Assembly: GCA_037481795.1 (NCBI GenBank)
Contig: JBBFLA010000004.1
Location: 42,673-106,672 of the forward strand
DNA length: 64,000 nucleotides
Reading direction: 5' to 3'
Source: Spirochaetota bacterium
GTDB taxonomy: Bacteria > Spirochaetota > UBA4802 > UB4802
Part shown: positions 2,390-63,899 of the stretch, piece by piece
How the letters are laid out: every line of letters begins with the position of its first letter
Numbering within the stretch: the first letter of the stretch is position 1
Program-made: the position numbers and the translations under genes
Notes under the pieces: model-generated
Seen by the model: only the letters and a program-made list of their open reading frames with translations
Databases searched by the model: none
What the model was told of the DNA's origin: nothing

Positions 2390-2412
2390 ATTGTTCAAAA
2401 AAATTTTTAAAT

Positions 2413-2487
<75 letters not shown>

Positions 2488-2747
2488 ATTTAGTTTTGAA
2501 CTATAGTTATTTACTGTAGCAAATAATTCAACAATTTTTTATAAAGATTTAGACTTATACATAAAATGATTAATAAATGCTACACAAAAATAGTAAAGCA
2601 CAATCCATAAAGAAAACAAAAATATAATCTTGTTTGTATAACCATTTAAAACATACTCTACCACTTGCTTAGTATTCTATAATACCTAATATGCAATATA
2701 GAATTCATAATATAATTCAAAAACATCTGGATAAAGATATAAAAAAC

Positions 2748-50687: not shown

Positions 50688-52715
50688 CTATTTAAGAATT
50701 ACTTTTTCATTAAGTTTGTATACTCTGGTTACATTTTTTATCTGTTTCAGTCGTTTCATAATCTCATTAAGATGATTTAAGCTTTTTACTTCAAGAACAA
50801 ATTTAAGCAATGCTTGATCTTTAGCAACTACAGAAGCTTCGGCCTTGATAATGTTTGTTTTTGTTAAGGATATTTCGTCGGCAACATCCTTCAATAAATT
50901 AGTTCTATCCATTGCTTCAACTGCAATTTTAACAGGATAGGTACTTTCTGACTGCTCCCATTGTATATCTACAAAGCGTTCTCTTTCATTTTGCAAACGT
51001 TGTAATGCAGGGCAATTTTTTTTATGGACGGTGATTCCTCTGCCTCTGGTAATAAATCCTATAACATCATCTCCTGGAATGGGTTGGCAGCATTGTGAAA
51101 GGCGTATCATAACATTATTTGTGCCATCTATGGTTATGCCAACTTTCTTTTTGTTTGTATAGCTTTTAAGTTTTACAAGTTCGTTTTCGGGTATACTGAC
51201 GCTGGCAATCTTTTCTTTCTTTTCCTTTTCTTCTTTTTCCAGATGTTCATCTTCAGGTTCTAAGTTCTTTCGTAACCAGTTGCGTATTTTATATCGGGCA
51301 TTTGATGATTTGACAAATTTAAGCCATGCAGGTGATGGGTGGCCTTTTTTGCTGGTTAATATCTCAACAATATCTCCGCTTTTCAATTCAGTTTTAAGAG
51401 GAACAAGCTGGTTGTTCACTTTTGCGCCAGTGCAATGATTGCCAATTTCAGTATGTATAAGGTACGCAAAATCTACAGGAGTAGAGCCCTTGGCCAATTT
51501 TATAATTTTTCCCTTAGGAGTGAAGACAAAAATTTCGTCTTCATACAGGTCCATCTTGAGTTCTTTAATGAATTCACGGGTATCATTAATTTCACTCTGC
51601 CATTCATGAATGTTATTGAGAATTGTAATATTTTTATATTTGGGCTTAAATGATTTTATCCCTTCTTTATATAACCAGTGAGCAGCAATCCCCATTTCTG
51701 CAGTGGCATGCATATCCCATGTTCGTATCTGAATTTCTAATGGATGGCCATCAGGCCCAATCACTGTTGTATGTAATGATTGATACATGTTTGATTTTGG
51801 TACAGCAATATAATCCTTAAATCGGGAAGGAATGGGGGTCCATATCGTATGAACAATACCTAAAATCCCATAGCAATCCTTTACTTCATTGGTAATAATT
51901 CTGATAGCCCTTAAGTCAAAAATATCGTCAAATGTTCTTCCCTGTTGAAGCTTTTTAAAGATTGAATAATGATGTTTGATTCTACCGTGAATTTGAGCTT
52001 CAATATTTAACTCTTTCAATCGTTGCTGCAATACATCGCGTATAGAATCAATAAATGCTTCTAATTCGCTTCTGCGTGCCTTTATATGTTCAAGGATAGC
52101 ATTATAGTCATCTGGATATAAAACTCTGAATGCCAGATCTTCCAGTTCACTGCGTATTTTGGACATGCCCAGGCGCCCTGCTAAGGGTGCATAAATATCA
52201 AGAACTTCCTGTGCAATATATTTTTGTTTATATTCAGGCTGGAACATGATAGTGCGCATATTGTGCAGTTTGTCGGCCAATTTAATAATTATCACACGGG
52301 CATCCTGAATGGTTGCCAGTAACATCTTACGCAGGGTCTCAGCCTGTTCCTTTTGCTTTGTATGTTTTTTTAACGAAGATATTTTTGTAACACCATCAAC
52401 AAGCGTTGCTACTTCTTCGCCAAATAGTTCTCTGACTTTATCTAAGTTGATTGGGGTATCTTCAACAACATCATGAAGCAATGCTGCAATGATAGTGGTT
52501 TCATCCATTTTAAGGTTAGCCAGGATAATGGCTACTTCCATGGGATGCACAATATATGGTTCGCCAGATAACCGTTGTTGATCTTTATGAGCTTGGCTGG
52601 CTATTTCGTATGCTTTTCTGATGTTTTCAATATGTATTTCAGGATTATTATCCTTAATAACAGATATAAGAGTATCAATATCTCTGCTTTTTATTTTTAG
52701 ATCTATAGGTGACAT
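50688..52715 (-). CDS. relA: Bifunctional (p)ppGpp synthetase/hydrolase RelA/SpoT
   Basis: HD hydrolase domain (HPMEVA...LLHDVVEDT), synthetase domain (RIKHHYSIFKK...), TGS and ACT-like C-terminal regions; 675 aa. Confidence 0.95.
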   Translation of the reverse strand: MSPIDLKIKSRDIDTLISVIKDNNPEIHIENIRKAYEIASQAHKDQQRLSGEPYIVHPMEVAIILANLKMDETTIIAALLHDVVEDTPINLDKVRELFGEEVATLVDGVTKISSLKKHTKQKEQAETLRKMLLATIQDARVIIIKLADKLHNMRTIMFQPEYKQKYIAQEVLDIYAPLAGRLGMSKIRSELEDLAFRVLYPDDYNAILEHIKARRSELEAFIDSIRDVLQQRLKELNIEAQIHGRIKHHYSIFKKLQQGRTFDDIFDLRAIRIITNEVKDCYGILGIVHTIWTPIPSRFKDYIAVPKSNMYQSLHTTVIGPDGHPLEIQIRTWDMHATAEMGIAAHWLYKEGIKSFKPKYKNITILNNIHEWQSEINDTREFIKELKMDLYEDEIFVFTPKGKIIKLAKGSTPVDFAYLIHTEIGNHCTGAKVNNQLVPLKTELKSGDIVEILTSKKGHPSPAWLKFVKSSNARYKIRNWLRKNLEPEDEHLEKEEKEKKEKIASVSIPENELVKLKSYTNKKKVGITIDGTNNVMIRLSQCCQPIPGDDVIGFITRGRGITVHKKNCPALQRLQNERERFVDIQWEQSESTYPVKIAVEAMDRTNLLKDVADEISLTKTNIIKAEASVVAKDQALLKFVLEVKSLNHLNEIMKRLKQIKNVTRVYKLNEKVILK

Positions 52716-52856: not shown

Positions 52857-53969
52857 TTACTTTGATTTGATTGCTGGCAGTTCCAGATCTATCTTGGGAG
52901 AACTTTTCTTGCCAAATTGTAATATTAATTTGTCTGGTACATCTTTAACAATAAATACTAAATAACCATCATTTTCTTTTACATTATCAAAATCAGTTTT
53001 AAGTGAGTAATCTTCTAACTCATAGACTGTATCGTTGTTAGCAATTAATCGGCATTCTTCATTCCAGAAAATAAATGCTTGTTTTGATGCAACATTTGTG
53101 ATTTTCATAAAGATTAAGATTTTTGTTGAAGAGTCTTGCTTTTTTTGTATTTTAATGGATGTTACATTACAATCAAATCCCTGATATTGAAATGATAAAG
53201 AAGCTGGAATTGTTATGGATTCAGAAAAAGTTGTATTTGTGATTGTGTTGGCAATTTCTTTGCTTTCACTGGATTTTTGTTCCATATTTTTTTTATAATC
53301 ATCAAATACTTTTAAATCCTCATCAAGGTTAGGAATACTAATACCCGTTTGATTTGATAATTCTTTCATTGCTTCTGCGTATGCTGTTTTAAATTCATCT
53401 GATTTTGAAGAGGCTATACTGTATATTGAAGCTGCTTCAAACTGACCAATATTTTCAAAGATCTTTTGTGCCTGTTCATACTTTTCATCTATTGGTTCTG
53501 GTTTTGAAATGGATTTCATTGTAATGGTTACCTGTTGTTTAGGTTCCATTGTAATAGATTCTCTGGTCAGCTTATTGTATATAGTATCCCTGGTGTTTGC
53601 AATAATTGTTGTTCCATCATCTTTTACATCAATAAAACCTGAACCTTCAAACTCAGCAGTATGCGTTTCTATTTTATATCCTTTGGGCATTGTTGCAAAA
53701 ACCATACCTAATAATATTAATGATCCATTTATAAATCCATTATCAGTTTTTACCATCATCATGCTTTTAGGATACATTAAAAACTGGGTTTCCTGATTCT
53801 GGTTTGCAACTGCTTTATTGTAAACTAATGCGTACGATTTATCATCAACTATAATCTGATATTGTGAATTATTAGGCAATTTTTTTATATCTTTTACGTA
53901 TGTGATTTTCCCTTCTTTTTGCAACATGACATCGCCACTGATTTTTTTTACTATTACACCTTCAGACAT
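52857..53969 (-). CDS. Hypothetical protein (370 aa)
   Basis: Strong RBS AAGGAGG before the ATG; no signal peptide and no recognisable family. Confidence 0.5.
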   Translation of the reverse strand: MSEGVIVKKISGDVMLQKEGKITYVKDIKKLPNNSQYQIIVDDKSYALVYNKAVANQNQETQFLMYPKSMMMVKTDNGFINGSLILLGMVFATMPKGYKIETHTAEFEGSGFIDVKDDGTTIIANTRDTIYNKLTRESITMEPKQQVTITMKSISKPEPIDEKYEQAQKIFENIGQFEAASIYSIASSKSDEFKTAYAEAMKELSNQTGISIPNLDEDLKVFDDYKKNMEQKSSESKEIANTITNTTFSESITIPASLSFQYQGFDCNVTSIKIQKKQDSSTKILIFMKITNVASKQAFIFWNEECRLIANNDTVYELEDYSLKTDFDNVKENDGYLVFIVKDVPDKLILQFGKKSSPKIDLELPAIKSK

Positions 53970-54434: not shown

Positions 54435-55052
54435 ATGATAGTACTAATTAATGAAATTAATCCACAGAAGCGCTTTATCAAGAAAGCAAAAGAGATTCTT
54501 GAAGAAGGAGGTATTATCATTTTCCCTACCGATACCGTGTATGCGTATGGATGTGATATTAATGACAAACGAGCAATTGAACGGTTGTATCTTATAAAGC
54601 GAATTCCCAAAAATAAACCACTCAGTTTTATATTTTCAGACATTTCGGAAATATCTCAGTATGTACGCAATGTTTCAGATCAGGCTTTTAAAATTATGAA
54701 AAAAGCTTTTCCAGGTCCCTATACATTTATTTTTCAGGCATCTAAATTAGTACCAAAGATTGCCATAACCAATCAAAAGACAATAGGTGTCAGGATTCCT
54801 GATAACAGTATTGCGCTTGAACTGGTGCAGGCATTAGGCCATCCAATAATGACAGCAAGTGTCAGCACCAAAGAAGGCCATTATGTAATTGATCCAGTTG
54901 ATTTAGACAAAGAATACCGAAATGCAGTTGACATGATATTAAGTTGCGGGCCTAAGACAAGTGATCCATCAACTGTTGTTGACTTTTCTGATGGTGATAT
55001 AAAGATTGTCCGCAAGGGCAAAGGTGAACTTTTTTTTATTGAGGAGGAGTAA
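54435..55052 (+). CDS. tsaC: L-threonylcarbamoyladenylate synthase (YrdC/TsaC family)
   Basis: YrdC domain GGIIIFPTDTVYAYGCD...IPKNKPL; 205 aa. Confidence 0.85.
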   Translation: MIVLINEINPQKRFIKKAKEILEEGGIIIFPTDTVYAYGCDINDKRAIERLYLIKRIPKNKPLSFIFSDISEISQYVRNVSDQAFKIMKKAFPGPYTFIFQASKLVPKIAITNQKTIGVRIPDNSIALELVQALGHPIMTASVSTKEGHYVIDPVDLDKEYRNAVDMILSCGPKTSDPSTVVDFSDGDIKIVRKGKGELFFIEEE

Positions 55053-55058
55053 GCAGCC

Positions 55059-55382
55059 ATGGATGTTTTGTTAAACTTTTTAATGAAATTGCTTGCCATT
55101 GCTATTTATATAGCCATGGGTGCGCTGGTGTCGTGGATATTTTACAGTTTAAAACGCCGTGATCTGTTTGGTGGATTTATTGGTGGTATGGTAATAGGTG
55201 TTATTGGTGCATTAATTGGCGGATTCATTCTTGATAAGCTGTTGCTTGATATAACAATAAAAATATTACGATTTTTAGTGTATGATACCGGTGTCAATAT
55301 CATTGCAGCGTTTATAGGCGGATATGCAGCAGTGTATGTCATGAACAAACTCAATCATGATAAGGAACGCAAACGCTATTAA
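55059..55382 (+). CDS. GlsB/YeaQ/YmgE-family small membrane protein
   Basis: Gly-zipper TM helices (GGFIGGMVIGVIGALIGGFIL); 107 aa. Confidence 0.6.
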   Translation: MDVLLNFLMKLLAIAIYIAMGALVSWIFYSLKRRDLFGGFIGGMVIGVIGALIGGFILDKLLLDITIKILRFLVYDTGVNIIAAFIGGYAAVYVMNKLNHDKERKRY

Positions 55383-57043
55383 AATCCTTCCGCAATTGCC
55401 TGTACAATATTTTCAGGAACATGTTCCAGATAGGGCTTTACATCATCCATACATGCAAAGGGGCGATGCACAATGATTGTTGATGCACCTTTTTTCCCAA
55501 TGCCCGGTATGGTTTCCAGAGCTTTTTGTGGCAGTGTGTTAATTGGTATTGGATATGGAAGGCACAGGAGAGATCGTTCTTGATGACCAACAACAATGCA
55601 ATCAACAAAACTAAAAAGCGGTAACCCTGCAGGAATTTTTGCCGTTATGGCGTAGCTTCTAATTTCTTTTGCGTACGAATAATCGTGCATACATGACATT
55701 ACCTGCATATTATACATAACAGTACCTATGGGGAATAGCCTGGCAATCATGGCATGGTCAATTACGCTTCTAATTTTTTCACGGTAAAAACGGTAACGGT
55801 TTTCAATCATTGTATTGTGTGTTTGTTTTTGTGCGGCGATAGTTCCCGGGAAGGGAAACAAACTACGTATATTAATCCGTTTCAAAAGCAGTCCTCTGTC
55901 AAGAATTTCCAGCAGCGATTCATAGTTGATTTTAAATGTGTCAGAGGTTTCACCAATAAGCCCATGAATAAGATTAATACCCGGTAAAAGTCTGTGGATG
56001 CCATTAATTATCTTGCCACCGGTATCGTTTATTAATTGTACAACCTGTATAACCTCTTCTTTTTGCAATTTAAGGTTGTTTTTTTGGATGACAGATGGAT
56101 CAAAAGATTCAACGCCTAACGGCATTGTATCGCCCGGAGTTACCGTATGAGCAATACAATCAATAATGGCCTGTGATTCTTCAGGAAAGTAAAAGATGGT
56201 ACCGGGATTTGCATTGTCAATGTTCAACATTTTGATATGCCCTTTTTGTGTTCGCTTTTGCAATTCAGTAAAAAGATTAATGACTGCAGCAGGATTTGGC
56301 CGCGGGAACCCGTGAACAAAGTCTTGCAGATGTGATTTATAAGCAATAATATCAGCCTGCCTTCCAATCCTGAATCTAAAAATCCCTTGAGCAATGAGTG
56401 CATCAATTTCACGTATGATATCTTCTTCATCTCTGAAATCAACAGATTGCAGTAACCCTTCAGCACAAAATGAGCAGTGATTGCGGCGTGGGCATCCTCT
56501 GTAAGTTTCTATCTCACAGATAAGGTTGGGGAATTGTGGGTGTAGCTTAACCAGCGTACTGCCGTAAACCGCCCAGCGTGCAAGGTCTTTGTATGTGCGA
56601 TAGTTACTGGTAACAGGACTACTGCCAGTAGCAATTGTATACGCAAACTGTTCGATATCACCAGTTACCAGTGTTGTATTGGTAAAATCCTTCACTAAGT
56701 GAGCTATCATACCGCCAATGGCAAATCTTTGACGTTTGTTTGCTGCAATGATTTTTGTAATTTCAGCAACAGTTCCTATTTTAAAGCCAAGGTATTTACC
56801 GGGAACTATTGCCCCCCCAATTAAAAAAACATAATGAAAATTATGTGGTAGCCGGTATTCAGCTTTGCGAAGAGCATCAATGGTAAGATACACAATTTCA
56901 TCATGGTATATACCGGCATCAATGAGTGCACCATACACATAGCGCGGGTAGGGGGAAACAAATGGCGGTACGCCAAAACACGCCGGTTCGTCCACGTAAC
57001 AATCAAGAATGCAGTATTGTTTATTCATGCTGTAATGATGCAA
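55379..57043 (-). CDS. Radical-SAM-superfamily protein with non-canonical CX5CX2C cluster motif and C-terminal helix-hairpin-helix
   Basis: YRGCPRRNHCSFCAEG verified in DNA (tgc cca cgc cgc aat cac tgc tca ttt tgt); C-terminal HhH LPQKALETIPGIGKKGASTII; 554 aa; overlaps the upstream HD gene by 23 nt. Confidence 0.55.
   Translation of the reverse strand: MHHYSMNKQYCILDCYVDEPACFGVPPFVSPYPRYVYGALIDAGIYHDEIVYLTIDALRKAEYRLPHNFHYVFLIGGAIVPGKYLGFKIGTVAEITKIIAANKRQRFAIGGMIAHLVKDFTNTTLVTGDIEQFAYTIATGSSPVTSNYRTYKDLARWAVYGSTLVKLHPQFPNLICEIETYRGCPRRNHCSFCAEGLLQSVDFRDEEDIIREIDALIAQGIFRFRIGRQADIIAYKSHLQDFVHGFPRPNPAAVINLFTELQKRTQKGHIKMLNIDNANPGTIFYFPEESQAIIDCIAHTVTPGDTMPLGVESFDPSVIQKNNLKLQKEEVIQVVQLINDTGGKIINGIHRLLPGINLIHGLIGETSDTFKINYESLLEILDRGLLLKRINIRSLFPFPGTIAAQKQTHNTMIENRYRFYREKIRSVIDHAMIARLFPIGTVMYNMQVMSCMHDYSYAKEIRSYAITAKIPAGLPLFSFVDCIVVGHQERSLLCLPYPIPINTLPQKALETIPGIGKKGASTIIVHRPFACMDDVKPYLEHVPENIVQAIAEGF
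56595..56610 (-). repeat. Copy of dispersed motif
   Basis: GTGCGATAGTTACTGG inside the radical SAM gene. Confidence 0.8.
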
Positions 57044-57623
57044 TAATATCTTCCAGAGGTTTTATAAGGTGTCTTTTTAATTTTTTTTCAATGATTATAA
57101 TAATGTCTTTGTTTTCAAGAATTTTGTTACAGCGTTCCGGTGTGGTGCCATAGCGTTTGAGCAGGTCTTCAATGCGCTGGTCAACTGTTACAATCTCATT
57201 GTGCATAACGCGTTTATCTGCGTAATACACTATATCTGCTTCATTGAGAGGTGAAGCCTCTGATGTGTCGCGTAAAAATACATGCTGCCCTACGATATCG
57301 GCTATTTCCGGATATCCTAAGGATTCTAAAAGTTGTTTGCCGGAAATGTCATGCTTTTCACCTGTTTTCAATGCACGGGATTTGGTGATGTCATGAAGCA
57401 ATGCTGCAGCACAAACTAAATCACGGTTGATTGTAACACTACCATTCAGATGATCAACGATGGTACAGGCAACCTTATATACCTGTAAAGAATGTTCAAG
57501 CACATTGGGCAGGATGTCATACTTCTGCAAAAGCGCTAAAGATGTTTTCATGTCAGGAATATTCATTAATGGTATCCACAGTAGTATATGATTTAATAAT
57601 ACACTATATGAGTAACATGTCAT
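57021..57623 (-). CDS. HD-domain phosphohydrolase (YqeK-like)
   Basis: H...HD motif: LEHSLQVYKVACTI...AALLHDITK. ATG at 57623 overlaps the upstream gene stop (ATGA); an alternative start at 57551 (MKTSLALL) would remove a hydrophobic 24-aa extension. Confidence 0.6.
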   Translation of the reverse strand: MTCYSYSVLLNHILLWIPLMNIPDMKTSLALLQKYDILPNVLEHSLQVYKVACTIVDHLNGSVTINRDLVCAAALLHDITKSRALKTGEKHDISGKQLLESLGYPEIADIVGQHVFLRDTSEASPLNEADIVYYADKRVMHNEIVTVDQRIEDLLKRYGTTPERCNKILENKDIIIIIEKKLKRHLIKPLEDIIASLQHE

Positions 57624-58327
57624 ATAATCATGTCAATAAAAAAGATTGAGCCAATATCAATTGCAAAAAGATCTGATAAAAAGGCAATGCTTTTGTTGTG
57701 GTTTTCAATAAAATTCACAATATTGGCGTAATCAGGATGGTGGTTTAAACGTCCGGTGAAGTAAACGGTGTCAGAGCACAAACCACTTGCACCGCCAATA
57801 AAACCGTACCGGTAGCCAGGAAGTTCAATATATCCAGGTTTAATGAGCAGTGAATCAATAGAATGTTTTATAGCAGCAGTGTGAATGGTAATGTCCGAGG
57901 TAATAATGGCATTTGAGTCAACAATGCAGGTTGAACATTTGGTGTATCCCTGGTTTACGTGAATCAGGGGGTCAGAGCATTGGGCTAAAATCTCTTTTAT
58001 GGTGCTATCAGTTACTTTTGTATTATGAAAAGCTATGCTGCCAGTATATGCGCAGTTATATGCACAGTCGTAAGGGTATTTTGCCTGTAGGTGGCTTTTG
58101 CCTGGTATTAATGTATAGTTTGATTGCGATAGTACCTGTAAAAAAGTCTTTTCAATATCTGGTTCATAAATGATATTGTTGCCAATGAAAAAAAGCTGGA
58201 TATCAGGGTGCCCTGCAACAGGCCGTTCAACGCGGGAACACAGTGGAATTGTAATGGGTGAAAATCTGTTGCGCGTTAAGCCTTTTATAACAGCCTGCGG
58301 TGTGTCAGGATTAATAATGGCAATCAT
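57620..58327 (-). CDS. Hypothetical protein (~235 aa) in operon with DUF1232 and HD proteins
   Basis: ATG at 58327 overlaps the DUF1232 stop (ATGA); the ORF-track N-terminal extension overlaps the upstream gene and is probably spurious. No family recognised. Confidence 0.45.
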   Translation of the reverse strand: MIAIINPDTPQAVIKGLTRNRFSPITIPLCSRVERPVAGHPDIQLFFIGNNIIYEPDIEKTFLQVLSQSNYTLIPGKSHLQAKYPYDCAYNCAYTGSIAFHNTKVTDSTIKEILAQCSDPLIHVNQGYTKCSTCIVDSNAIITSDITIHTAAIKHSIDSLLIKPGYIELPGYRYGFIGGASGLCSDTVYFTGRLNHHPDYANIVNFIENHNKSIAFLSDLFAIDIGSIFFIDMII

Positions 58328-58719
58328 GGTTTTAAAAGCCTGATAATTCCGGTAACTATCGCATACATAAAAAAACCTATACAGAACCACACAAGAATAA
58401 TAAGTAAAAGCCCCAGCACAATAAATCCCAATGACTTTTTAAATGCTGAATGCGCCTGCACCTTACATTCTTCATAAACAGGTTGTGGAATAGATTTTAT
58501 TGCTATAAAAAATAAAAACGGTAGTATGACAGCGTCATCCAGATATCCAATGAATGGAATAAAATCAGGCACCAAATCAACTGGGGACAGAGCATATGCT
58601 ATTGTCACTATAATTATGATTTTTGACCATAGTGAGACTTCAGGATGCTTGATAGCAACCAGCAATGCACCAACAGTGTCACGGAAGTTAAAGAATATTT
58701 TTTTAAATTTGCTTTTCAT
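58324..58719 (-). CDS. DUF1232/YkvA-family membrane protein
   Basis: Signature DLVPDFIPFIGYLDD followed by TM helices; 131 aa. Confidence 0.65.
   Translation of the reverse strand: MKSKFKKIFFNFRDTVGALLVAIKHPEVSLWSKIIIIVTIAYALSPVDLVPDFIPFIGYLDDAVILPFLFFIAIKSIPQPVYEECKVQAHSAFKKSLGFIVLGLLLIILVWFCIGFFMYAIVTGIIRLLKP
58349..58365 (+). repeat. Copy of dispersed motif (17-mer identical to 60127..60143)
   Basis: CCGGTAACTATCGCATA near the 3' end of the DUF1232 CDS. Confidence 0.8.
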
Positions 58720-58916
58720 GAACTATTTTTGCAAAACCTTTACTATGGTGCTTCCAAAAGTGATTGATGACTTTTTAAAATAATATACCATATACTGTGG
58801 TCATTTGGATACAATGTATCTCTTGTTTGCTGCAAAATCATCTGTGTTAAACAAAAAAATTTGTTATGTAAAATTATTTTAAACTGCACACGCCAGTAAG
58901 GATTAATGTAAAAAAA

Positions 58917-60116
58917 TTAATTAAAATAATCAAACAGCATAATAAAATCCATATCGCCAATGGTCAGGTGCTTTTGCCTGTACTTCTGGTAGATATTTCG
59001 TTTAGCTGATTCCAGCGCTTCAGGTTTTATGCCATATTTTATGGAAAATGAAGCTTCAAGAAATGCAGCAAAATCATCACAGGCTTTAAGCATCTGCCCA
59101 TCCAGCGGATTGAACCTGTCCTCATTATACTGAGTATTCAATTCTTCAGGGGATATTTTTATGGTTACAGAATCATTATGCCATATCTTATTTTCAAATT
59201 CATTGAATATATAATATCGCATTTCGTTATGCCACTTTTCAGGTATGAGGGGGAAAATACGATTATTAGCTTCAATGATTTCGTACTCTTTGATGAGTTC
59301 TTCCAGACCTTTGATAGAACGTTTGACAGGCGAAACAATGTCACGGGTGAGTACTTCCGGCAGGTCGTGAAAAAGCGAAGCAAAAAAATTATTATACATG
59401 CGTTTTGCGCAAGCACCCAGTTCACGCGAGCAAAAGTAGGAAAGCATTGCTACAATAAGCATGTGCCCCAAAACCGATGTCTTTGGTATTCGTGGCGTTT
59501 GTGCCCACCGTTGCTGAAATCGCAACTGTCCGCACAAATTGATAAACCCGGCAATATTGCGGTGTGAAAGTATCTTCTGCACGCCAGTTAAATCAATATG
59601 ATATTCAATCTGACTTTCTATCTCATTTTTTGTTTTTTCAATGTCGTATAAAAATTTATTACTCTGGTAAATAATCTGAAATTCCCAGTTGGTGGCAAGG
59701 TAATGCGCTGCTTGCAGTATTTTTTTTTCAAACGGTGCAAATTGTGTGTCCTGAAAATACCGTAAAAATGTTTCTTTAAAATTTCCTTTAACAGGGCTTA
59801 TATCGTCGTCAAGCTGAGCAAAAACCCATTCGTTGAGTTCTTTGCCTTTTTCTTTCATTATCTTATGAAAAATGGGCGGTTTAATGTCAGTTACTATCAC
59901 CCGGTGCAAAAGTTCAAAGATGCCGCCTTCAATAAGGTGTATCCAGTTTACACAACCTGGATTTTCTTCTTCCTGAAATTTAGCTATTGTATAAGCAATT
60001 ATCATTTTATGTGCCTGTTTGTCAATTTCGGTAAATTCGGTGGGGCGTGCATGGTCATTCCATCGCTGAATGCTTGCTGCCTGAAACAACTTTTCAATTA
60101 AACCTTTTGGTATCAT
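58917..60116 (-). CDS. HD-domain protein with YfbR-like (5'-deoxynucleotidase-type) C-terminal domain and ~200-aa N-terminal extension
   Basis: LGHMLIVAML...FHDLPEVLTRDIVSPVK resembles the YfbR H...HD...D pattern; ATG at 60116 has RBS GGAG; the ORF-track start 60203 is likely too early. Confidence 0.55.
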   Translation of the reverse strand: MIPKGLIEKLFQAASIQRWNDHARPTEFTEIDKQAHKMIIAYTIAKFQEEENPGCVNWIHLIEGGIFELLHRVIVTDIKPPIFHKIMKEKGKELNEWVFAQLDDDISPVKGNFKETFLRYFQDTQFAPFEKKILQAAHYLATNWEFQIIYQSNKFLYDIEKTKNEIESQIEYHIDLTGVQKILSHRNIAGFINLCGQLRFQQRWAQTPRIPKTSVLGHMLIVAMLSYFCSRELGACAKRMYNNFFASLFHDLPEVLTRDIVSPVKRSIKGLEELIKEYEIIEANNRIFPLIPEKWHNEMRYYIFNEFENKIWHNDSVTIKISPEELNTQYNEDRFNPLDGQMLKACDDFAAFLEASFSIKYGIKPEALESAKRNIYQKYRQKHLTIGDMDFIMLFDYFN

Positions 60117-60126
60117 AGAATAATCT

Positions 60127-60143
60127 CCGGTAACTATCGCATA
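60127..60143 (+). repeat. Copy of dispersed motif (17-mer identical to 58349..58365)
   Basis: CCGGTAACTATCGCATA immediately upstream of the RBS of the HD-domain gene (minus strand). Confidence 0.8.
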
Positions 60144-60227
60144 TGAAAATAAAACTTGCATGGTCTTGTAAATGCAAGTAAAATATTGAATAGTGTAGAG
60201 CAATAGTTAACGGTAAAAGAAATATAT

Positions 60228-60247: not shown

Positions 60248-60700
60248 ATGGAAACACAGTGCAAAAAACTCATACTGGGAATTGGAAACCCTCTGCGTAG
60301 CGATGATATTGCAGGAAGTATCGTTGCACGCAAGCTGAAACTATTGGGGCTTACAGGTATAGATGCAGAGTTTATGCCCGAAAATTACATTGGTGTTATA
60401 CGAAGGAACAAACCAGAGAAAATCATTGTTGTGGACTGCTGTGATATGAACCTGCCACCGGGCTCTGTGCGAAATATACCGGTACATAAAATTCACAGCG
60501 GAATAGTAACCACACATAGTCTGCCGTTAAAAGCCGTTATGCAACAATTACTTGAAATAACCCCCAATATCATGTTTATTGGAATACAGCCTGAAAATAT
60601 AGAAGTGGGCGATACAGTAAGTGATGCGGTTAATACGGCTATAGAGCAGATTGTTGCAATAATCAGTAGTGGGAATGAGGATGCTATAGCACTGCTATGA
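60248..60700 (+). CDS. Hydrogenase maturation protease (HycI/HyaD/FrhD family)
   Basis: Signature ILGIGNPLRSDDIAGS; 150 aa. Confidence 0.75.
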   Translation: METQCKKLILGIGNPLRSDDIAGSIVARKLKLLGLTGIDAEFMPENYIGVIRRNKPEKIIVVDCCDMNLPPGSVRNIPVHKIHSGIVTTHSLPLKAVMQQLLEITPNIMFIGIQPENIEVGDTVSDAVNTAIEQIVAIISSGNEDAIALL

Positions 60701-60901: not shown

Positions 60902-61378
60902 ATGAAACAAAAACCACTCAATTTCCAGCAAGCAATCATTGATTTTATGAAGTCTAAAGCCAATCGTATGGAAAAAGAGTTAAATGTGCCGGGTAACTGG
61001 TATTTTAATGAAGGCGATGAACAGGAAATCAAATCCTGGACCGACGAAGAAGCAGCAAAAGTATGGGAAAAGATTAAACACAATATTTTCAAGTTAGGAT
61101 GTTCGGGTCTGCGGTATGAATTGTGCCCATTCTGCCATTATTACGGATATGAACATAATGGATGTTATAAAGCCTTGAAAAATCCTATATGTGTAAAGTG
61201 TGGATATGGTAAAAGGCACGGTATATGTATTGGTGAAGAAGGACATGTCAGCCAGTATAAACAGATATTACAATCATTTGAAGACTCCCGTATCAGCATG
61301 TACAAATTCTTTACTAATGAATATTATACGGTACTCATTGACAAGATTGAAAAGGAAAATGTAAAGGCAATTGCTTAA
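60902..61378 (+). CDS. Cys-rich hypothetical protein (probable metal-binding)
   Basis: CPFCHYYGYEHNGCYKALKNPICVKCGYGKRHGICIGEEGH gives 8 Cys in 45 aa; followed by a terminator. Confidence 0.45.
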   Translation: MKQKPLNFQQAIIDFMKSKANRMEKELNVPGNWYFNEGDEQEIKSWTDEEAAKVWEKIKHNIFKLGCSGLRYELCPFCHYYGYEHNGCYKALKNPICVKCGYGKRHGICIGEEGHVSQYKQILQSFEDSRISMYKFFTNEYYTVLIDKIEKENVKAIA

Positions 61379-61931: not shown

Positions 61932-63899
61932 ATGAGCGGTTATATGGGTCAGTATGTAATTATTAATCTCTCCACTGGTAAATCCACTATCAAAAAACTG
62001 TCTGATGATTTTTACAAAAAGTATTTAGCAGGCTATGGTATGGGTGTTGCCATAATCAGCCAATTGCAAAAGCCAAAAATTAATCCATTGTCACCGGAAA
62101 GCGTACTTGGATTTTGTTCGGGTCTTTTAACAGGAAGCGGGGCATATTTTGCAGGGCGGTTTATGGTAGTTGGTAAATCGCCATTAACGGGAGGCTGGGG
62201 CGATAGTAACTGTGGAGGGTTCTTTTCGGTAGAAATAAAGCGCGCTGGATTTGATGCAATATTTGTTACCGGCAAGGCAAAAACGCCGGTATATATAGTC
62301 ATTAATGATGGTAAAATACAGATAAAAAATGCAAAGAAGTTGTGGGGAAAGGATACCATTGAAACAGAAGAACTCATAAAAAAAGAGCTTAACGATGATA
62401 AATATCAGGTTGCCTGTATAGGGCCTGCTGCAGAGAAACTATCACTCATATCAGGTATTGTAACCGATGGAGGAAGAATTGCTGCACGCAGTGGATTGGG
62501 CGCTGTCATGGGAAGCAAGAAGTTAAAAGCCATTGCCATAAAAGGAACAAAGAAAATACCGGTTGCAAAACCTGATGTTTTAAAGGAAATTAATAAAAAA
62601 TTTTTAGCAAGTTTTAAATCAACCAGCCCCATTGATAAAGCCACTGTCAATATGATGAATTTTTTAAGCCAGATTATAGCGCGAACCAGGGTATCAGTTC
62701 CAACACAGCCTTCAACGGTACGTGAAATATTTAAACGGTACGGTACAAGTGGCACAACAGTGTATTCTGCATTTACCGGTGATACGCCAATCAAAAACTG
62801 GGCTGGTGTTGGGTATTTAGATTTTCCAGGTGTTCAAAAAATTTCTGATGAAAGTGTGGTAGCACATCAAAAGAAACGATATGCATGCCAGTCATGTCCG
62901 CTTGGATGTGGTGGCATTGTTGACATAAAAGCTGGAAGGTATAAGGGCACAGAAGGACACAAGCCAGAATATGAAACTCTGGGCTCTTTTGGTGGTATGC
63001 TTTTACTGGATGATTTAGATGTAATAATGGAAATAAATGAATTATGCAACAGAGCTGGTATTGATACCATATCTACAGGTACTGCTGTTGCATTTGCTAT
63101 TGAATGCTATGAGCATGGGATATTAACAAAGAAAGACACTGGCGGATTAGAGTTAGGCTGGGGCAAAGCTCAAGAAATACTTACATTAACAGAGATGATA
63201 ATTAACAGGAAAGGAATTGGCAACATACTGGCCGATGGAGTAATGCGTGCAGCAAAGAAGATAGGCAAAGGTTCTGAAAGTTTTGCCATTCATGCTGGCG
63301 GTCAGGAGCTTCCCATGCATGATAGCCGGCTGGATGATGGATTTGCTGTTACCTATTCTTCTGAAGCAACACCAGGGCGCCATACCATTGCATCAAATTT
63401 ATACAATCATCTATACAGAACTAAAAAGCAATTTCCCATGGTTAAGAAAATGCTAAAAAATGCAAACAGTAGCACTGCAAAACGCTTAACCCTGACAGCT
63501 GCATCAATGTATTTTGCTAATCTATTTAATGGTTGCGGTATGTGCCAGTTTGGATTTTTAAGTGGCTCAATTCCACTGGTTGATTATATTAATGCTGTGA
63601 CTGGATGGGATTTGCCTGCCGATGAGTATTTAACAATTGGTGAGCGTATCCTTAATATGCGAAAAGCTTTCAATGTACGGGAAGGGTTATATGTTAAGGA
63701 CACAATTATCCCTGATCGTGCACAGGGCAAGCCACCACTACAGGAAGGCCCATTAAAAGGTGTGGCTGTTCCCATTAATGAATTGCTAAATGAATTTTTT
63801 GCTATAACCGGATGGGAACCTAAAACTGGTGGCCCAACTGATGCTAAGCTAAAAGAATTGGGAATTGAGGATTTATTTGGTTCTAAAAAAAGCAAATAA
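61932..63899 (+). CDS. aor: Aldehyde:ferredoxin oxidoreductase (tungsten/molybdopterin AOR family)
   Basis: Canonical AOR N-terminal domain (QYVIINLSTGK...GKSPLTGGWGDSNCGG) and Fe-S/pterin-binding cysteines (CQSCPLGCGG); 655 aa. Confidence 0.9.
   Translation: MSGYMGQYVIINLSTGKSTIKKLSDDFYKKYLAGYGMGVAIISQLQKPKINPLSPESVLGFCSGLLTGSGAYFAGRFMVVGKSPLTGGWGDSNCGGFFSVEIKRAGFDAIFVTGKAKTPVYIVINDGKIQIKNAKKLWGKDTIETEELIKKELNDDKYQVACIGPAAEKLSLISGIVTDGGRIAARSGLGAVMGSKKLKAIAIKGTKKIPVAKPDVLKEINKKFLASFKSTSPIDKATVNMMNFLSQIIARTRVSVPTQPSTVREIFKRYGTSGTTVYSAFTGDTPIKNWAGVGYLDFPGVQKISDESVVAHQKKRYACQSCPLGCGGIVDIKAGRYKGTEGHKPEYETLGSFGGMLLLDDLDVIMEINELCNRAGIDTISTGTAVAFAIECYEHGILTKKDTGGLELGWGKAQEILTLTEMIINRKGIGNILADGVMRAAKKIGKGSESFAIHAGGQELPMHDSRLDDGFAVTYSSEATPGRHTIASNLYNHLYRTKKQFPMVKKMLKNANSSTAKRLTLTAASMYFANLFNGCGMCQFGFLSGSIPLVDYINAVTGWDLPADEYLTIGERILNMRKAFNVREGLYVKDTIIPDRAQGKPPLQEGPLKGVAVPINELLNEFFAITGWEPKTGGPTDAKLKELGIEDLFGSKKSK
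62197..62213 (-). repeat. Copy of dispersed motif
   Basis: GGGGCGATAGTAACTGT inside the AOR CDS (codes WGDSNC). Confidence 0.8.

Follow-up and report, generated by a model that had tools for sequence, protein, structure and literature searches.

A conserved gene pair of an HD hydrolase and a radical SAM enzyme in Spirochaetota, a candidate RNA-directed system

We examined a stretch of 64,000 bp (referred to here as the window) of contig JBBFLA010000004.1, positions 42,673 to 106,672, from the Spirochaetota bacterium assembly GCA_037481795.1, an uncultured Leptospirales-like genome. Its ORF listing revealed five minus-strand ORFs within 55379-60203 (Table 1), which encode, from the upstream end, a protein with an HD_3/YfbR-like HD domain (HD_3 protein), a small DUF1232 membrane protein, a DUF6873 protein, an HDIG-type HD metal-dependent hydrolase (the HD protein) and a radical S-adenosylmethionine (SAM) enzyme (rSAM) that ends in a helix-hairpin-helix (HhH) domain. 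An earlier note, made from the sequence alone, had read these genes as one operon, possibly a module for nucleotide or nucleic-acid modification or salvage. The five genes were confirmed where it had placed them, and all of them are considered real since every one matches a known family or has numerous homologues. The conserved unit, on the other hand, is very probably a two-gene core composed of the HD and rSAM genes only. Judging from the overlapping reading frames, this pair is translationally coupled, and the remaining three are neighbours whose presence changes from lineage to lineage.

The gene neighbourhood was surveyed by tblastn and profile HMMs in the best 80 genome loci encoding an rSAM relative (48-90% identity), which belong to Spirochaetota metagenome-assembled genomes or to unclassified bins; neighbours were counted in the 50 loci with at least 7 kb of upstream sequence. 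In all of the 79 loci having upstream sequence, a small HD gene was found directly upstream of the rSAM gene and on the same strand, and the tight linkage of rSAM to an HD hydrolase, as claimed in the earlier note, is thus upheld. When the longest ORFs were compared, the two genes overlapped by 4 nt in 44 loci and by 7-8 nt in 12. The whole neighbourhood is collinear in the nearest locus, where rSAM is 90% identical, and the order HD_3-DUF1232-DUF6873-HD-rSAM is repeated in the three closest genomes (70-90% rSAM identity). Beyond these close relatives the set breaks up. DUF1232 was found near the pair in 3/50 loci, which are the 3 closest ones, and a YfbR-like HD_3 gene in 6/50, while DUF6873 was detected within ~8 kb upstream in 15/50 loci, often not adjacent to the pair and often several kb off. 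Co-conservation, on which the five-gene module depended by the earlier note's own account, therefore fails for all three genes. In Firmicutes, DUF6873 lies beside ytxC and in one case upstream of thrS, with no rSAM gene.

The position just upstream of the HD gene was taken by varying genes, which encoded DUF6873, RecO, a SET-domain protein, TetR, HD_3 or a SAM hydroxide adenosyltransferase. The last of these (PF01887) was upstream in 10 loci, typically so close to the HD gene that the three genes form a compact unit. SAM hydroxide adenosyltransferase genes (PF01887/PF20257, DUF62) located directly upstream of the pair, often overlapping the HD start, were seen in loci L019, L025, L029, L030, L031, L038, L043, L045 and L075. 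According to recent papers, DUF62/SAM_HAT proteins hydrolyse the (R)-sulfonium epimer of SAM, which is inactive (bioRxiv 10.1101/2025.08.29.672840; PMC12120602); on this basis, the recurrent SAM_HAT-HD-rSAM operons may represent a cofactor-hygiene arrangement.

On the downstream side, the genes for a 107-aa membrane protein and for tsaC are convergent to rSAM and directly follow it in 33-34 of 60 loci, which is probably plain shared synteny and is not co-transcription. The housekeeping synteny around the pair includes relA in addition to tsaC. Because tsaC was convergent downstream in 34/60 loci, hn6A/t6A-related chemistry was considered; it was dropped as no support was found. In 16 related loci, a gene for a RelA/SpoT-family protein is kept close to the pair, and in the window this gene is adjoined by a 370-aa ORF.

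The junctions between the five genes depend on the start codons. The 554-aa rSAM ORF opens at a TTG, and since close homologues are all 545-552 aa long, the start is most likely the ATG at 57028. From this ATG, the rSAM gene overlaps the HD stop by 8 nt, ATGAATAA, instead of the 23 nt described in the earlier note. Homologues of the HD protein are mostly 176-187 aa long, and in relatives below ~80% identity the similarity begins near residue 20; for these reasons the ATG at 57566 is the likelier HD start. The ATGA string at 57620-57623, which had been taken as a coupled stop and start, is present in the sequence; with the likelier HD start at 57566, there would probably be a gap of ~53 nt after DUF6873 and no ATGA coupling. 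The other ATGA overlap, at 58324-58327, was confirmed as the DUF1232 stop and DUF6873 start. Of the tight packing, this one overlap is verified, whereas 197 nt separate the HD_3 and DUF1232 genes. Promoter-like and terminator-like sites across the locus were no commoner than in shuffled sequence, so transcription units are not readable from the DNA.

Table 1 Genes and protein features at the HD-rSAM locus and in its surroundings (positions in the window)
Feature	Position	Strand	Remarks
Radical SAM (rSAM) gene	55379..57028 (longest ORF to 57043)	(-)	549 aa from ATG 57028; core of the conserved pair
HDIG-type HD metal-dependent hydrolase gene	57021..57566 (ORF to 57623)	(-)	Probably 181 aa (200 aa if full ORF)
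DUF6873 protein gene	57620..58327	(-)	235 aa; frequent, facultative neighbour; 'DUF6873 family GME fold protein' at NCBI
DUF1232 small membrane protein gene	58324..58719	(-)	131 aa; local passenger gene
HD_3 / YfbR-like HD domain protein gene	58917..60116	(-)	399 aa; sub-clade neighbour
rSAM N-terminal Rossmann-like domain, residues 1-135	56624..57028	(-)	Family motifs DCYVDEPACFGVPPF and GGAxVPGKYLG; from model secondary structure and invariant residues
rSAM [4Fe-4S]/SAM cluster motif CPRRNHCSFC (CX5CX2C), residues 179-188	56465..56494	(-)	
rSAM TRAM-like five-stranded beta-barrel, residues 437-491	55556..55720	(-)	Predicted structure
rSAM C-terminal (HhH)2 domain, residues 500-548	55385..55531	(-)	Includes IPGIGKKGASTII; four helices in the model
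Predicted membrane protein	55059-55382	(+)	107 aa; ends 4 nt inside the rSAM 3' end, convergent
tsaC (Sua5/YrdC family; L-threonylcarbamoyladenylate synthase)	54435-55052	(+)	TIGR00057 207 bits
370-aa ORF	52857-53969	(-)	Adjoins the RelA/SpoT-family gene
RelA/SpoT-family protein	50688-52715	(-)	675 aa
HycI-type hydrogenase maturation protease	60248-60700	(+)	Flanks the block
Conserved Cys-rich ORF	60902-61378	(+)	158 aa; no family match; flanks the block
Tungsten-type aldehyde:ferredoxin oxidoreductase	61932-63899	(+)	Flanks the block
tRNA-Pro(GGG)	2412-2488	(-)	Only RNA gene found in the window (Rfam, ARAGORN)

Homologues of rSAM (53-85% identity, ~100% coverage) carry the JGI name 'radical SAM superfamily enzyme with C-terminal helix-hairpin-helix motif', a family which we take to be COG1031. 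Full-length homology to the proteins of this name, in addition to the C-terminal HhH, assigns rSAM to the family, which is small, with 614 matches at E <= 1e-3 among 1.84 billion cluster representatives, of which 141 reached E <= 1e-30. The three-cysteine motif and a partial TIM-barrel core (PF04055, with 27.7 bits just below the cut-off of 29.5) place it in the radical SAM superfamily. A preprint on an HhH-rSAM enzyme was found to concern another family, the one with DUF4130.

The CPRRNHCSFC motif reported in the earlier note was confirmed, with its cysteines C179, C185 and C188 being invariant in 65 homologues. Its CX5CX2C spacing is a variant of the canonical CX3CX2C and was present in 120/120 of the closest rSAM homologues. 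Family-wide, the 86 full-length representatives showed CX5 (37), CX7 (34), CX4 (7), CX6 (6), CX3 (1) and CX9 (1). As the spacings run from CX3 to CX9, the CX5CX2C spacing is no defining oddity of this protein. A CX5CX2C megacluster, which may be this family, is already listed in RadicalSAM.org (PMC9477430).

The C-terminal HhH noticed earlier was also confirmed. The hairpin IPGIGKKGASTII covers residues 507-519 (window 55472-55510), its residue G509 is invariant in the 65 homologues, and the model shows a four-helix domain at this position. Pfam HHH_3 matched the C-terminus with an E-value of 0.0073, which is below its cut-off in strength, and the (HhH)2 region showed weak profile matches to a ComEA-related protein and to a DNA-binding protein, with a partial match to RuvA. 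Both the HhH and the barrel domains are kept across the wider rSAM family. At the N-terminus, on the other hand, close and wider relatives differ, as Cys10 and Cys17 were both present in 117/119 close homologues versus 2/101 representatives of the wider family, which instead keeps D-[GC]-Y-x-D-E-P...G-V-P-P-[YF] and V-P-G-[KR]-Y in the N-domain. The two cysteines suggest a clade-specific metal site or a disulfide. The region that holds them (residues 9-23, window 56960-57004) is the least confident part of the model, with a block pLDDT of 61.

An AlphaFold2 model of rSAM, built from 65 sequences, reached a pLDDT of 91.6 and a pTM of 0.90. It consists of an alpha/beta N-domain, a core (residues ~168-400), a long helix, a barrel with strands at residues 437-447, 450-455, 462-465, 474-482 and 486-491, and four C-terminal helices. 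The top Foldseek matches were MiaB, RimO and MtaB (E 2e-17 to 5e-15, target TM 0.68-0.71, ~500 columns), the best of them being MiaB with bound RNA. Among the best fold matches, MgmA, RimO and MiaB, it was MgmA that was structurally closest; the structure alignments covered 397-401 residues with RimO and MiaB, 50-60 residues more than the 344 with MgmA. The model thus places rSAM in the structural clade that unites the methylthiotransferases and the class B (cobalamin) rSAM enzymes.

MiaB, RimO and MtaB are composed of a UPF0004 N-domain, an rSAM core and a TRAM domain, and our rSAM resembles this scaffold in its Rossmann-like N-domain and core and in a predicted TRAM-like barrel, which may correspond to the TRAM domain of the methylthiotransferases. 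However, neither PF00919 (UPF0004) nor the Pfam TRAM model matched rSAM, and it differs from the three enzymes in its CX5/CX7 loop instead of CX3 and in its extra (HhH)2 domain, with 12-16% identity. Where the methylthiotransferases have the three cysteines of an auxiliary [4Fe-4S] site, the wider COG1031-type family has Gly or other residues, and since the family is devoid of this auxiliary cluster, rSAM is not a methylthiotransferase. As for the class B enzymes (MgmA, PDB 9CCB, as the closest; TsrM, CysS, TokK and the B12-independent AprD4), Pfam B12-binding PF02310 did not match the rSAM N-domain, which has family-specific motifs instead, and the NCBIfam B12-rSAM matches cover only residues 176-226. 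AprD4 shows that a class B fold can lack cobalamin. MgmA, which methylates a protein glutamine (PMC11796369), is also devoid of the C-terminal barrel and HhH found in our rSAM.

The rSAM enzyme usually cited for CX5CX2C is HcgA (formerly HmdB), and it has the same spacing of cluster cysteines as rSAM. Nevertheless, the evidence for homology between the two is limited to the superfamily, the NCBIfam HcgA model was not matched, and the spacing is one of several variants here. The CX5CX2C motif is listed in PMC10100467.

The HD protein matched Pfam HD PF01966 with 50.1 bits (cut-off 22) and NCBIfam HDIG TIGR00277 with 41.8 bits (cut-off 27.6). Its residues H25, H58-D59, H72, H95 and D117 are invariant and correspond to the H..HD..H..H..D metal-ligand set of binuclear HD hydrolases, and these ligands together with the HD model match assign it to the HD/HDIG metal-dependent phosphohydrolases. 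In NCBIfam, the DVU_1551 family NTP transferase model came closest to it, through its C-terminal HD half, with 113.8 bits against a far higher cut-off of 315; the HD protein also weakly matched the HD portion of the NCBIfam model of the archaeal tRNA Cm56 methyltransferase. The model of the protein (pLDDT 94.9) showed weak Foldseek matches at TM ~0.5, with 2PQ7 (E 2e-3) being followed by YqeK, the cyanamide hydratase Ddi2 and PgpH. The HD protein shares the ligand set and the all-helical HD fold with YqeK, PgpH and 2PQ7, and YqeK structures are among its top fold matches; yet these matches are weak (E 2e-3 to 5e-2, TM ~0.5, 13-20% identity). No YqeK family model was matched in NCBIfam or Pfam, and no YqeK chain appeared in the PDB profile search at E <= 0.01. 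The earlier label 'YqeK-like' thus reduces to a loose fold likeness (Foldseek E 5e-3). A nearly invariant Cys9 of the HD protein was considered as completing a shared cluster with Cys10 and Cys17 of rSAM; this was dropped, as Cys9 is also kept in stand-alone HD homologues.

To reach the distant branch of the family, the metagenome scan was re-anchored on a 36%-identical member, which gave 80 loci on contigs that carry no taxonomy. Within 6 kb of rSAM, no homologue of the HD partner, DUF6873, SAM_HAT or HD_3 was detected in these 80 loci, even at E < 1. The HD partnership is accordingly a Spirochaetota-clade innovation, and in this clade it goes together with the gain of the pair Cys10/Cys17 at the N-terminus. 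Nine distant loci showed the order L21e-Rpo4-DUF655-KsgA-rSAM, in which L21e and Rpo4 are archaeal or eukaryotic markers. In ~19 loci an AIR-synthase-related gene (PF00586/PF02769) abuts rSAM, and one locus of this type encodes an 871-aa ORF whose translation reads the YGDTDS motif of family-B DNA polymerases. Judging from such gene content, the distant relatives are partly archaeal. An RNase III-like gene (153 aa, PF14622) was located 10-45 nt downstream of rSAM in 26/80 distant loci (among L107-L166), and in loci with this gene a KaiC-like ATPase gene is often found divergently upstream of rSAM.

In our reading, rSAM is a radical enzyme that acts on RNA and has a lineage-specific partner in the HD protein; we give this overall reading an even chance of being correct. 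A nucleic-acid substrate for rSAM, as proposed in the earlier note, is judged plausible; that this substrate is RNA is a serious possibility, somewhat short of even when taken by itself. Counted in favour of RNA were the KsgA/DUF655 and RNase III-like contexts of the distant loci and the weak match of the HD protein to the tRNA Cm56 methyltransferase model. The data show the anatomy, the pairing, the fold class and the lack of auxiliary-cluster cysteines, whereas RNA as the substrate, the chemistry and what the HD protein does are inferred. The nucleic acid, most likely rRNA or tRNA, would be held by the barrel together with the HhH domain, and the [4Fe-4S]/SAM site would generate a 5'-deoxyadenosyl radical for attack on an unactivated C-H in the substrate held there, while the strongly conserved motifs of the N-domain probably bind a cofactor, conceivably cobalamin, or a co-substrate. 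In Spirochaetota the HD protein would act together with rSAM, probably as a phosphohydrolase whose target is the substrate, a nucleotide-derived co-substrate or a product, and the two proteins may form a complex. It is a more tentative and rather doubtful proposal that the pair forms a two-component enzyme which installs an unassigned rRNA or tRNA modification in Leptospirales-like spirochaetes, with the wider family being a missing RNA-modification enzyme in which the N-domain replaces the auxiliary cluster or cobalamin.

Several observations weigh against reading the pair as RNA-directed. Distant rSAM relatives occur without the HD partner, and HD proteins 50% identical to that of the window occur on their own in two other genomes, away from any rSAM gene, so the role of the HD protein may be peripheral. 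The archaeal neighbour genes are housekeeping genes that differ between lineages, and their proximity to rSAM may be plain synteny. The HhH and TRAM-like assignments are drawn from the predicted structure and from sequence matches below threshold. A literature search returned no experiment or paper bearing on the COG1031-type family, which has a name and is, as the earlier note supposed for rSAM, uncharacterised.

Alternatively, rSAM might modify a protein, such as a ribosomal protein in the ribosome, in the way RimO acts on S12 and MgmA on methyl-coenzyme M reductase, with the HhH and barrel domains docking onto rRNA or onto the protein substrate. This is unlikely, given that (HhH)2 domains are typical nucleic-acid binders, that RNA-bound MiaB was the top Foldseek match, and that no candidate substrate protein gene conserved beside the pair was found in the loci examined. 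It is also rather improbable that, in the manner of AprD4, CysS or TsrM, rSAM works on a small molecule or a cofactor, either as a cobalamin-dependent (class B) enzyme or free of any cofactor, with the HD protein dephosphorylating a phosphorylated intermediate and the HhH being vestigial or regulatory. Against such an enzyme stand the conservation of HhH and barrel across the family, the unmatched Pfam B12-binding model and a neighbourhood which does not resemble a biosynthetic cluster, as the pair resides in housekeeping synteny with tsaC and relA.

The proposal that the five genes, with their two HD hydrolases, DUF6873, DUF1232 and rSAM in sequence, serve one pathway of nucleotide or nucleic-acid salvage or modification draws on the gene order recurring in the three closest genomes and on the tight packing with its one verified ATGA overlap. 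We regard it as very improbable, and it is largely refuted by the census, in which the set broke up beyond close relatives and RecO, SET, TetR or the SAM hydrolase could take the place upstream of the HD gene; the different context of DUF6873 in Firmicutes and the 197-nt gap before DUF1232 also speak against it. The RNA-directed HD-rSAM pair remains the reading we prefer.

The three variable neighbours were annotated as follows. The DUF6873 protein matched Pfam PF21778 with 249.2 bits over the whole model, which assigns it to that family; a PDB profile search gave no match and a literature search no relevant paper. The DUF1232 protein matched Pfam PF06803 with 52.6 bits. In the HD_3 protein, the Pfam models HD_3 (116.7 bits) and YfbR-like (67.6 bits) both fall on residues 191-369, and weak PDB matches to YfbR and OxsA were obtained. 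Its earlier description as a YfbR-like HD protein thus stands at the domain level. It does not extend to a YfbR 5'-deoxynucleotidase, since the NCBIfam 5'-deoxynucleotidase equivalog scored 41.7 bits against a cut-off of 122 and the protein has ~190 additional N-terminal residues, YfbR being ~200 aa long. Residues 1-190 showed no Pfam or NCBIfam match, and the protein is about twice the length of YfbR. PADLOC matched no defence system in the five proteins and returned only marginal generic HD matches (dGTPase 1.6e-5, Cas3 HD 2e-3).

Upstream of the block, the plus strand carries genes for a HycI-type hydrogenase maturation protease, a Cys-rich ORF and an aldehyde:ferredoxin oxidoreductase (Table 1), which point to an anaerobic lifestyle; AFOR_N and AFOR_C were matched by the oxidoreductase of the 90% relative.

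The rSAM family was already named and catalogued, and its fold class is known. What appears to be new is the strict HD pairing in one bacterial lineage, a family devoid of the methylthiotransferase auxiliary site, and the variable cluster loop. Genome annotations should not carry the five-gene block forward as an operon or a pathway. The HD-rSAM pair is a reasonable experimental target rather than a surprising new system, and its strict pairing in one lineage gives experiments a starting point, since co-expression of two small genes is feasible. Should the RNA-modification reading hold, the rSAM family would be a radical enzyme conserved in archaea and some bacteria, with no reaction assigned to it, and an orphan modified nucleoside might be explained by it. 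The family would also represent a third way to equip the MiaB/class B scaffold, with no auxiliary cluster and possibly no cobalamin.

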